A DNA stretch of 64,000 nucleotides from an uncultured Actinomycetes bacterium (GTDB lineage: Bacteria > Actinomycetota > Thermoleophilia > RBG-16-64-13). Positions 56,036 through 57,840 of this stretch are shown here, piece after piece. Position 1 is the stretch's first letter. The number at the start of each line of letters is the position of its first letter. The notes under the pieces are model-generated. The model ran no database searches, was not told the origin of the DNA, and saw nothing but the letters and a program-made list of their open reading frames with translations. A program made the translations under genes and the position numbers. Location: contig CAWFCN010000001.1 of NCBI GenBank assembly GCA_963814415.1, positions 683,231-747,230 on the forward strand, read 5' to 3'.

Positions 56036-56261
56036 ACAGACCCTCAAGTTGGACATGAGGGTTCGACCGAAGACCGGCGGAGCGCTCCGCCGGTCTTCTT
56101 CTTCCACCGGGGCATGCGGGTCCGACATAGTGGCCGGCTCCGAGCCGATCGCGACCTGCGGATCGCCTCACACCCATGCATCTGGCGCCGGCGACGCTCT
56201 CTAGGTACACTCGGGCGCGACGATGCACGATCGGCGTGAATCGCAAGTGACGGGGGTTCAA

Positions 56262-57410
56262 GTGGACGAGCCGTGGGTGTGTCCCAAGTGCGGCTTCACA
56301 AACGAGTACTACGCGGCCTACTGCGTCTCGTGCAGCGAGGTCCGGCCCTCCGAGGGTGGTACCTCGGCAGGCTCGGCCGACCAGGCCGGCGGTCTGGGCC
56401 CCTCCGCGGACAAGTCATTGCGCGACTTCCAGGCCGAGGCCAAGGCCCTAGCCGCTTCGGCACCGATGCCGGCTTCCGCGCCCCGGTCCATGAGCGCGCC
56501 CGCGCCGCGGCCGACGGCGGGTGCCGTCAAGCCCGGCACCACCGCTCCCGCCCCACGGGGCACGGCAGCGCCCGCCCCCACGCCGACCTCGACGGCCACC
56601 TCCGCCGGAACGTCCGCGCCCACGTCTGATGGAGCCGGCGACCCCTGTCACATCTGTGGCCGGCGGCCCGCCGCCCTGTTCAGCTTCGATTCCAACCGGG
56701 GCATGATCCTGAAGCGTGAGGTCTTTCGCTTTCACGGCAGGCTGTGCCGCACCTGTGCTAAGGGGGTCTACCGCGAGCACCAGACCCGCAACCTGGGCTG
56801 GGGTTGGCTCGGCAGCGTATCGCTTCTGAGCGCCATCGCCTGGTCCATAAGCAACCTTCGCGACTATCGCAAGAACCTCAAGGGCCTGGGGGCGCCCCTG
56901 CCCACCGATGCCGCGACGGAGCGGAGACTGGCCGGACGGCCTATCATCAAAGGGTTACTCCCCGGACTGGGGATCCTGGTCGCCATCGTCGCCGCCGTGG
57001 TCATCGGGTTCACAGTGCAAGGACGCGGCGAGATCGATCAGTCCTACATCGACGAGTTCTATACCATCAACGCGGTAAGGAACGAGGTGATCGACCTCTC
57101 CAACTCGCGCTACGACCTCTGGCAGGCCGTTTCGCAATACACCGTGCCGGGTGCCCAGTACCTGGTGGTCGACGAGCTCGCCTACTTTGAGACCCAAGTG
57201 GAGAGGATGTCCCTGCCCAAGTCCGATGGACTTCGGGCGATGCATCAGGCGTGGATGACCACGGTGCAAAACCTAGCGGCCGCGGAAAGACTGCTGGCCC
57301 AGGAGAACACCCAGGCCAACCTGGACGCCGACATGCAGGCGTGGTTTGCCGAAGAAACGGCCTACGAGGGTATGTTCGACTACTGCAAGAAGCACGACCG
57401 GCCGGAGTAG
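56262..57410 (+). CDS. zinc-ribbon domain membrane protein (paralog 1)
   Basis: GTG start with GGGGG SD. N-terminal CPKCG...CVSC ribbon, Pro/Ala/Thr linker, second CxxC...CxxC, two TM helices, and a 140-aa extracytoplasmic domain. Confidence 0.6.
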   Translation: MDEPWVCPKCGFTNEYYAAYCVSCSEVRPSEGGTSAGSADQAGGLGPSADKSLRDFQAEAKALAASAPMPASAPRSMSAPAPRPTAGAVKPGTTAPAPRGTAAPAPTPTSTATSAGTSAPTSDGAGDPCHICGRRPAALFSFDSNRGMILKREVFRFHGRLCRTCAKGVYREHQTRNLGWGWLGSVSLLSAIAWSISNLRDYRKNLKGLGAPLPTDAATERRLAGRPIIKGLLPGLGILVAIVAAVVIGFTVQGRGEIDQSYIDEFYTINAVRNEVIDLSNSRYDLWQAVSQYTVPGAQYLVVDELAYFETQVERMSLPKSDGLRAMHQAWMTTVQNLAAAERLLAQENTQANLDADMQAWFAEETAYEGMFDYCKKHDRPE

Positions 57411-57441
57411 CAGCGCGAAACCGCAAGCGAGGGGGGTTGAA

Positions 57442-57840
57442 GTGGACGAGCCGTGGGTGTGTACCAAATGCGGCTTCACAAACGAGTACTACGCAGCCTA
57501 CTGCGTGTCATGTAGCGAGATCCGGCCGGCCGAGCCTGCTGAGTCGCAGACCCCCGAGCCGCGTACGGCCCGCCCCGACTACAAGTGGGACTACGCGCCT
57601 CCCACGCCCACGGCCAAAATCCGCCGTCCTGAGGAGAAGAACGCGCCCCAGCCGGTGGCCCACAAGCCGGCGATGCCCGCCCCGTTGCCCACGCCCACCC
57701 CCTCCGGCAGGCGCCCCTTCGTCCTGCCCAAGAACTTCGCCAAAGTGGTCGGCGTAGTGATATGGATAATCATAGTGACCATCGTCATCCCGGCCCTGCG
57801 ATGCACCGCCGAGGGCGTCGTGTACATGCAGAGTCCGTAG
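57442..57840 (+). CDS. zinc-ribbon domain tail-anchored membrane protein (paralog 2)
   Basis: Same VDEPWVC(P/T)KCGFTNEYYAAYCVSCSE N-terminus and same upstream GGGGGG-ttgaa-GTG context, with a C-terminal TM helix. Confidence 0.55.
   Translation: MDEPWVCTKCGFTNEYYAAYCVSCSEIRPAEPAESQTPEPRTARPDYKWDYAPPTPTAKIRRPEEKNAPQPVAHKPAMPAPLPTPTPSGRRPFVLPKNFAKVVGVVIWIIIVTIVIPALRCTAEGVVYMQSP

Follow-up and report, generated by a model that had tools for sequence, protein, structure and literature searches.

We have analysed a pair of adjacent genes in a 64,000-nucleotide (nt) stretch of DNA from an uncultured Actinomycetes bacterium, referred to here in its full length as the window (contig CAWFCN010000001.1, positions 683,231 to 747,230). 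The two open reading frames (ORFs), ORF1 (56262..57410, plus strand; a two-ribbon membrane protein of 382 amino acids (aa) with a GTG start) and ORF2 (57442..57840, plus strand; 132 aa), carry a direct repeat at their 5´ ends. Our reading, to which we give a probability of roughly three in four, is that they are tandem paralogues that diverged long ago, that the repeat represents their shared initiation region and the codons of a zinc ribbon, that ORF2 has lost a domain, and that the pair leads a unit with hgcA and hgcB. A first-pass annotation of the same DNA had attributed the pair to tandem duplication of an N-terminal module; the evidence below points to old whole-gene paralogues, the shorter of which arose by a deletion of 131 codons. 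The phenomenon itself is ordinary and combines paralogy, selection, codon bias and in-frame domain loss; the context of hgcAB and a HAAS-PadR regulatory pair is the part of most note.

A repeat search of positions 55400-58400 returned a sole long direct repeat of 116 nt, ungapped and 89% identical at a spacing of 1180 nt, and a MAFFT alignment gave the same ungapped block, with similarity collapsing on either side. Copy A (56239..56354, plus strand) opens with a leader of ~23 nt that contains the ribosome-binding site GGGGG and continues through the GTG start (56262) to codon 31 of ORF1. Copy B (57419..57534, plus strand) begins 9 nt past the ORF1 stop codon and contains the same leader, a GTG start at 57442 and codons 1-31 of ORF2. 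The non-coding leaders are identical at 19 of 23 positions, with GGGGG placed 6-7 nt ahead of the start, and the shared codons encode the ribbon peptide VDEPWVC(P/T)KCGFTNEYYAAYCVSCSE(V/I)RP. The first-pass annotation had described two adjacent same-strand genes sharing a repeat of ~110 bp and ~90% identity that spans the GGGGG site, the GTG start and the ribbon codons, all of which agrees with both copies; its first interval (56240-56350) was right, while the second (57413-57523) was out of register by ~6-7 nt, so that the implied offset of 1173 was slightly wrong. An apparent extension of the similarity further upstream into the 3´ end of ORF1 (13 matches in 17 positions, with a 13-nt gap) was treated as chance in GC-rich DNA, because the C-terminus of ORF1 (…HDRPE) is conserved in the relative P0002 (…HDQPE). 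Here and below, P-numbers denote relative proteins and L001-L014 the loci or contigs with family members.

GTG is the start throughout the family: it was adopted for both genes because homologues open at the same V/M-D-E and because L008 has an in-frame TAG right before it. Mechanical calling places the starts upstream, at an ATG at 56223 for ORF1 (13 codons ahead of the GTG) and at a TTG at 57346 for ORF2. The window (56223-56261), L007 and L011 each have an ATG in frame with the GTG and 13-14 codons ahead of it, 8-11 nt past the TACACT box described below; a 3-nt indel among these segments preserves the frame, and ATGGTGCGC is found in L004 as well, out of frame there. This ATG could be a leaderless alternative start or belong to a small upstream ORF. 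The leader, CAAG..GAC.GGGGTTCAA-GTG, is kept in the orthologous genes of L007, L011 and L012 and is best read as a constrained translation-initiation region. No Rfam family matched anywhere in the window at gathering thresholds, and the conserved 5´ region is hence not accounted for by a riboswitch or leader RNA.

Taken as a string, a 116-nt match at 89% is far beyond chance. The coding part of that identity is explained by an almost invariant ribbon peptide and by the 86% of codons that end in G or C (GC3 of the window genes, 0.86), which together would keep the copies alike. Under a codon-bias null in which the codons of an identical ribbon peptide are drawn independently, ~56% identical codons and ~85% nucleotide identity are expected. 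Over the 75 nt of the ribbon core, ORF1 and ORF2 are 89% identical and use the same codon at 16 of 22 identical residues, which is not significantly above this expectation (P = 0.08; this and the following P values refer to identical codons at identical residues, tested against the codon-bias null). The ribbon DNA of ORF1 is nearer to genes of other genomes (91-96%) than to ORF2: over the same 75 nt it is 96% identical to L007 (21/24 codons, P = 0.001), 93% to L002 (20/22, P = 0.0005) and 91% to L004 (18/23). On this comparison the coding part of the repeat does not speak for a recent duplication, the copies share less nucleotide ancestry than “about 90% DNA identity” would suggest, and the leader appears as the sole part that needs such ancestry.

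The family to which both proteins belong argues that paralogy extends over the whole gene. A word-indexed protein search with ORF1 yielded 10 relatives only, an exhaustive profile search 21 representatives at E < 1e-30, and a further word-indexed search with a 23-sequence alignment added only P0017. Two architectures are found. In the two-ribbon form (ORF1, P0002-P0004, P0012, P0016), the ribbon and a disordered linker are followed by a second four-Cys ribbon, a GWGW-helix, a Lys/Arg-rich loop, a transmembrane (TM) helix and a C-terminal domain. The 1-TM form (P0005-P0010, P0019-P0021; 248-294 aa) has ribbon, linker, TM helix and the same C-terminal domain. Full-length 1-TM members of 248-279 aa align to ORF1 across ribbon, TM helix and C-terminal domain (P0006 against ORF1, E = 1e-30), which argues for whole-gene paralogy and against duplication of an N-terminal module. 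By homology, then, ORF1 and ORF2 are whole-gene paralogues of an old, small and uncharacterised actinobacterial family.

In ORF1, the RanBP2-type ribbon occupies residues 1-29 (Cys 7, 10, 21, 24), the disordered linker 30-125, the second four-Cys ribbon 126-170 (Cys 129, 132, 162, 165), a weak amphipathic helix, H1, 178-199, followed by the Lys/Arg-rich loop, the TM helix 232-250 and a four-helix bundle 260-380, modelled by AlphaFold2 with a predicted local distance difference test score (pLDDT) of ~90. The ribbon reads W5-V-C7-PK-C10-GFT-N14-EYYAAY-C21-VS-C24, that of ORF2 is identical save for P8T, and both agree exactly with the motif W-x-C-x(2-4)-C-x3-N-x6-C-x2-C. The family ribbon profile matched RanBP2 (4e-17), Nup153 (7e-7) and ArnA (1e-6) in the PDB. 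ORF1 and ORF2 score 22.1 and 21.4 bits against PF00641 (E ~1e-4), below the gathering threshold of 27, and the relatives P0002, P0005 and P0009 carry precomputed PF00641 matches. In the model, residues 1-20 have pLDDT 53-57 and no assigned strands, the RanBP2 fold being two beta-hairpins around one zinc. Elsewhere in the window, a weak ribbon-like tblastn match at 44211-44095 was set aside as a CxxC stretch within a 576-aa ORF that begins, by sequence reading, like dihydroxy-acid dehydratase.

ORF2 consists of the ribbon (residues 1-29), a Pro-rich linker (30-100), a TM helix (101-119) and a 13-residue tail, and the protein search gave no close homologue of this length. Over 126 residues it shares 70.6% identity with the N-terminal half of P0006 (263 aa), whose other ~137 residues match only the C-terminal domain of ORF1. 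On two other contigs, L007 and L011, intact orthologues of 263 aa occupy the corresponding position ahead of hgcA. By blastn, L007 532-930 corresponds to window 57420-57818 (82%) and L007 1328-1507 to window 57823-58002 (83%), the latter taking in the gene end, the spacer and the hgcA start; the codons of the four-helix bundle between them (L007 931-1327) have no counterpart in the window, and tblastn found no remnant of the lost domain elsewhere in it. The difference in length, 393 nt, amounts to exactly 131 codons and keeps the frame; past the deletion, the final codons and the stop codon still align (…VYMQSP* against …SYTQGP*). ORF2 is, on this alignment, an in-frame deletion derivative of the 263-aa 1-TM gene that lacks the 131 codons for the bundle. 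What is left begins with the ribbon, with no signal peptide, and has its one TM helix within ~30 residues of the C-terminus: hydropathy (Kyte-Doolittle) peaks at 2.65 over residues 101-119 of 132, which leaves a tail of 13 residues. This is in line with the short tail-anchored form that had been annotated.

A possible, though rather unlikely, alternative is that ORF2 is a decaying, functionless pseudogene, and that copy B is the uneroded 5´ end of a dead paralogue made redundant by ORF1. It has lost the only confidently folded domain of the family and has no promoter box of its own, and redundancy is suggested by the presence, at each hgcAB-linked locus, of one or more paralogues whose C-terminal domain is intact. 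The ratio of nonsynonymous to synonymous substitution rates (dN/dS), from a three-taxon Nei-Gojobori comparison of ORF2, L007 and L011, speaks for both sides. On the ORF2 branch it is ~1.9 in the linker and ~0.08 in the ribbon and ~0.16 in the TM helix, against 0.20 overall and 0.14 in the linker for the intact pair L007-L011; these values come from small counts (2-32 changes per class), and the ORF2 branch includes time before the deletion. Further evidence against decay is that the deletion is exactly in frame with the original stop codon kept, that the ribosome-binding site and GTG start are intact, and that a 128-aa ribbon-only member in L010 indicates that short forms recur. Relaxed codon bias was dropped as a sign of decay, since the GC3 of ORF2 (0.85) equals that of its neighbours. 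The data suggest that ORF2 is not fully dead and is still translated into a tail-anchored ribbon, with purifying selection kept up on the ribbon and TM helix and relaxed in the linker. Loss may occur elsewhere in the family: the 1-TM member P0010 (L002 10001-10723) seems frameshifted in its C-terminal domain (…DELLVFPGADSRRERP…), which was counted on the side of decay and may reflect either a pseudogene or a long-read sequencing error in a metagenome-assembled genome.

Tandem arrays are seen at other loci. In L003 a two-ribbon gene is followed 54 nt on by a VDKEWV… start, and L010 has three members in a row. In promoter region, leader and ribbon, the genes on L007 and L011 are like the 5´ end of window ORF1 (88% over 182 nt; the L007 ribbon peptide is identical at 29/29 residues), and from about codon 30 on the genes follow ORF2, with no ORF1 body present. 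Here an ORF1-type promoter, leader and ribbon run straight into an intact ORF2-type body. This is most simply explained if the ribbon repeats of a tandem pair recombined and the first body was thereby deleted; the 116-nt repeat looks like a substrate for such an event.

These comparisons also bear on the model of the first-pass annotation, in which a recent segmental duplication or gene conversion copied only the ~116-nt cassette of ribosome-binding site and ribbon onto an unrelated downstream ORF, giving rise to a novel membrane protein tagged with a ribbon. The abrupt borders of the similarity fit such a model, as do the leaders, alike in the window and unlike in the L003 pair, and the ORF1 ribbon, which matches that of the 1-TM member P0006 at 29/29 residues and those of other two-ribbon members at only 23-25/29. 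We nevertheless regard it as improbable. Beyond the cassette, ORF2 is not unrelated, being 70% identical over its whole length to a 263-aa member with an ORF1-homologous C-terminal domain; coding identity lies at the codon-bias expectation (P = 0.08) and under the values between ORF1 and other genomes; and the same leader is conserved in the orthologues of L007, L011 and L012. The two ribbons differ synonymously at 6 of 22 identical-residue codons, a divergence of the same order as that between the window and L007, and any exchange was therefore not recent. What survives of the idea is that the ribbon match to the 1-TM subfamily and the similar leaders are compatible with an older exchange of 5´ ends.

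A common plan can be proposed for the family, from N- to C-terminus: a cytoplasmic RanBP2-type ribbon, a disordered Pro/Ala-rich linker, an optional second four-Cys ribbon with amphipathic helix, one TM helix oriented N-in/C-out, and an outer four-helix bundle. ORF1 had been annotated as a 2-TM protein. This is unlikely, because H1 is weak (Kyte-Doolittle peak 1.3, and below 1.0 in P0002-P0004, against 2.7 for the TM helix), because the loop between H1 and the TM helix is rich in Lys/Arg (7 Lys/Arg and 2 Asp/Glu in ORF1; 6-8 Lys/Arg in close two-ribbon relatives), and because the bundle homologous to that of ORF1 must, from the predicted topology, lie outside in 1-TM members. The segment past the ORF1 TM helix is acidic. 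ORF1 is thus probably single-pass, with H1 predicted at the cytoplasmic membrane surface. The module from second ribbon to TM helix is widespread, accounting for most of 1144 matches at E < 1e-3, and the DnaJ domain that often precedes it places the N-terminal side in the cytoplasm. The cytoplasmic location and Pro-rich linkers annotated for both ribbons agree with this prediction.

Parts of this plan are reminiscent of known proteins. The ribbon shares the motif W-x-C-x2-C-x3-N-x6-C-x2-C with RanBP2-type/NZF fingers (PF00641; Nup153, RanBP2, Npl4, HOIL-1L and the N-terminal ribbon of archaeal ArnA, PDB 5a8i) and is likewise a stand-alone small four-Cys module at a protein terminus; it differs in that it scores below the Pfam cut-off and is joined to a bacterial membrane anchor through a long disordered linker. 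Uncharacterised actinobacterial J-domain/four-Cys-ribbon membrane proteins (P0013-P0015, P0030-P0036) have the second ribbon, GWxG helix, Lys/Arg-rich loop and TM module of ORF1, and P0013-P0015 also a C-terminal four-helix bundle. In these an N-terminal DnaJ domain, with or without a C2H2-like finger, replaces or adds to the RanBP2 ribbon, and most of their C-terminal domains are unrelated. The outer bundle resembles chemoreceptor sensors of the Tar/Tsr type in being a membrane-anchored, extracytoplasmic, antiparallel four-helix bundle, but is anchored by one TM helix instead of two and lacks HAMP and signalling domains. In a Foldseek search of the ORF1 model against the PDB no match reached significance (best E = 0.075, TM-score at most 0.5); those returned were generic bundles, among them cytochrome c' and the Tsr ligand-binding domain.

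The pair leads into hgcA (corrinoid protein; 57922..59148, plus strand), which starts 81 nt after ORF2, and hgcB (ferredoxin; 59156..59461, plus strand). Both are NCBIfam equivalogs (414 bits for a cut-off of 275, and 119 for a cut-off of 99), bearing out the annotated position of the pair immediately before hgcA. The gaps between ORF1, ORF2, hgcA and hgcB are 31, 81 and 7 nt. A promoter-like element upstream of ORF1 (56183..56215, plus strand) consists of a -35-like TGGCGC (56183-56188), 17 nt, and TACACT (56206-56211); within it falls the box GTA[C/G/A]ACTC, which occurs once in the window, is placed 44-52 nt ahead of the start codon at 10 of 12 family loci, and was not found upstream of ORF2. 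Further upstream, a perfect 15+15 nt palindrome past the neighbouring Cys-rich gene (56069..56098), followed by the T-rich tail TTCTTCTTC and kept in L007, is a likely terminator that would separate that gene from the ORF1 unit. A scan for sigma-70 promoters and terminators, poorly suited to high-GC actinobacteria, found neither within ORF1-hgcB. We infer that ORF1, ORF2, hgcA and hgcB form one transcription unit, which the box at ~56183-56215 would drive.

The unit is probably controlled by a divergently placed regulatory pair on the minus strand. A PadR-family regulator (55061..55474; PF03551, 74 bits) overlaps by 8 nt a multi-TM protein (54022..55068) with a PF13796 'Sensor' domain (107 bits) and a HAAS domain (PF22564, 21 bits; cut-off 27). 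As a stand-alone PadR beside a HAAS-domain membrane protein, the two form a HAAS-PadR dyad, an arrangement proposed as an alternative to two-component systems (PMC11237479). A SnoaL-like gene (53501-53899) accompanies the pair.

The first-pass annotation had advised looking for co-occurrence with hgcAB or PadR in other genomes, and the arrangement does recur. The contigs concerned were found by exact-protein look-up of relatives, because profile and degenerate-DNA-pattern scans of genome and metagenome contigs gave only L009 (the L002 contig) and then nothing. Six contig groups have a family member directly upstream of hgcA and in the same orientation: the window, L007, L011 (9 nt), L008 (4-nt overlap), L012 (24 nt) and L004/L005/L006, where an S-adenosylmethionine (SAM) methyltransferase gene intervenes. 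PadR is present upstream in all five informative groups, L007 starting within the Cys-rich gene; near-identical PadR genes precede the ribbon gene in L004, L008, L011 and L012, and the HAAS-'Sensor' partner stands beside PadR wherever the contig is long enough. Between loci with only 35-60% identity in their ribbon proteins, PadR remains nearly identical. The intervening methyltransferase (L004 2712-3677, L005 1555-2520) is a 321-aa class-I enzyme with an N-terminal CxxC…CxxC.

Neither hgcAB nor PadR is found in L001 and L002 (= L009), although these carry the left flank of the window (acetyl-CoA hydrolase-GNAT gene) and its right flank (PemK toxin gene), and the HAAS-PadR pair as a whole is absent from both. 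L010, a short contig with the PemK flank, and L013 and L014 likewise have no hgcAB, and no PadR was seen on them. From this distribution the ribbon family and the Cys-rich protein appear as the resident core of a variable island, around which HAAS-PadR and hgcAB co-vary. Two toxin-antitoxin-like pairs on the minus strand flank the island, PemK/MazF with a ribbon-helix-helix (RHH) antitoxin at 59466-60127 and Gp49/HigB-like with HTH_3 at 61368-62041; the PemK pair is the conserved right flank in L001, L002 and L010.

The Cys-rich gene (55625..56035, plus strand; mechanical ORF start 55544) encodes a secreted lipoprotein-like protein (…FATGC…) whose signal peptide ends …F-A-[AT]-G-C and whose mature part consists almost entirely of Cys, Gly, Asp and Asn, with 21-nt tandem units encoding NCAGGGG repeats and a conserved C-terminal …E(V/P)LCF. 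It has no Pfam or NCBIfam match. Homologues (L001 11017-11349, L002 11113-11508, L011 472-858, L007 1-254) always adjoin a ribbon-family gene, with or without hgcAB, and the protein could bind thiols or metals outside the cell. Within hgcAB itself, residues 1-72 of HgcA (57922-58140) form an N-terminal extension, PCACSS…SCAA…PCACAAKPYEY, and the NCBIfam HgcA model matches from residue 73; Cys-rich extensions are also found in L008 (1893-2150), L012 (1374-1583) and L011 (1824-2007), with CCC in L008 and L012. HgcB ends in …NCDCGGAC.

Several points weigh against our reading of the pair and its unit. The direction of change at L007 and L011 may be the reverse, ORF1 having been gained in the window lineage, and both are metagenome contigs of 1.5-2 kb. 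Some exchange between 5´ ends in the window lineage is likely, because the leaders are 19/23 identical here and unlike in the L003 pair. In the AlphaFold2 model of ORF1 only residues 260-380 are confident, residues 1-260 having pLDDT 31-62, and the N-in/C-out orientation of both architectures is a prediction. Before hgcA lies a 72-nt intergenic segment (57843..57914, plus strand) that is shared with L007, 48 nt of it (GACTGTGGGTTAACATATCCGCCTAAGCGTCGAATGACAG…) at ~98% identity, against ~82% in the flanking coding DNA. L011 lacks the segment, its hgcA beginning 9 nt past the preceding stop codon. The segment may hold a separate promoter internal to the unit, or else represent an operator or a small element inserted there. 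The terminator scan demands T-runs and may miss actinobacterial terminators, and co-transcription, promoter, PadR control and ORF2 translation are all read from sequence. The hgcAB-linked loci all belong to one clade with nearly identical PadR, so that the adjacency may be inherited synteny instead of a functional link, and family members occur without hgcAB both at syntenic (L001, L002, L010) and at distant loci (L013, L014).

As to function, we propose with low confidence that the ribbon proteins act as adaptors or sensors that span the membrane, the bundle facing outwards and the ribbon binding proteins on the inside, and that they would be co-expressed with HgcAB without taking part in its catalysis. 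Anti-sigma-like or metal-sensing roles had been suggested, and such roles are without specific support in these sequences. Single-pass anti-sigma factors (of the ASD and zinc-binding ZAS types) share the N-terminal cytoplasmic Cys domain, single TM helix and C-terminal outer domain. The ribbon proteins differ in having no HxxxCxxC motif (no His precedes the CxxC pairs) and no anti-sigma match in Pfam or NCBIfam, and the nearby regulator is a HAAS-PadR dyad instead of a sigma factor: no sigma factor gene lies within ~6 kb, and no sigma-70 family domain was found in the ORFs at 51365-63930 or in the called genes of L001-L014.

One intriguing, if doubtful, possibility is that the ribbon proteins are dedicated accessory factors of mercury methylation, either as thiol-rich relays or assembly partners that pass Hg(II) to HgcA/HgcB or by coupling an outer signal to HgcAB activity, the tandem pair then representing subfunctionalisation. 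The co-oriented position directly upstream of hgcA in six contig groups (overlapping it by 4 nt in one of them), the four cytoplasmic Cys of each ribbon, the Cys-rich extension of HgcA and the conserved Cys-rich secreted neighbour would all be consistent with this. The restriction of linked loci to one clade and the same-flank and distant members without hgcAB, noted above, argue against it, as does the ribbon itself, which is of the canonical RanBP2/NZF type; characterised ribbons of this type bind proteins or RNA rather than relay metals. No heavy metal-associated (HMA; GMxCxxC, ferredoxin-like) domain was found in ORF1, ORF2 or the Cys-rich neighbour with Pfam or NCBIfam, and a literature search gave no paper linking hgcA with such genes. 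Equally speculative is a broader view in which the ribbon-TM-bundle proteins, HAAS-PadR and the Cys-rich protein constitute an unrecognised accessory and regulatory module of hgcAB: hgcAB would have no promoter of its own and form the tail of a transcript under envelope-signal control, with the ribbon proteins coupling to membrane-bound HgcA.

In known hgcAB neighbourhoods, an ArsR-like regulator lies immediately upstream (McDaniel et al. 2020, PMC7438021). The present locus is similar in having a small gene consistently just upstream of hgcA and a transcription factor nearby, but the upstream gene encodes a membrane protein and the regulator is a PadR with a HAAS membrane partner. The literature search gave no paper that mentions hgcA together with PadR.

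In conclusion, the pair carries a caution for the interpretation of short repeats. In a genome with 86% G/C-ending codons, ~90% identity over a short invariant peptide is no sign of a recent duplication, and the informative signals for the history of such a repeat are the non-coding leader and the comparison with other genomes. ORF1 and ORF2 define a small and unannotated family of membrane proteins, whose second ribbon and four-helix bundle are covered by neither Pfam nor NCBIfam models and which appears to evolve through in-frame module loss and recombination at a conserved 5´ end. To our knowledge, little is known of hgcAB regulation outside ArsR-linked cases. In the uncultured actinobacteria studied here, a ribbon gene that carries a conserved promoter box precedes hgcAB, next to a HAAS-PadR pair; should co-transcription hold, methylmercury production in soil actinobacteria would gain a regulatory setting that is concrete and open to test.

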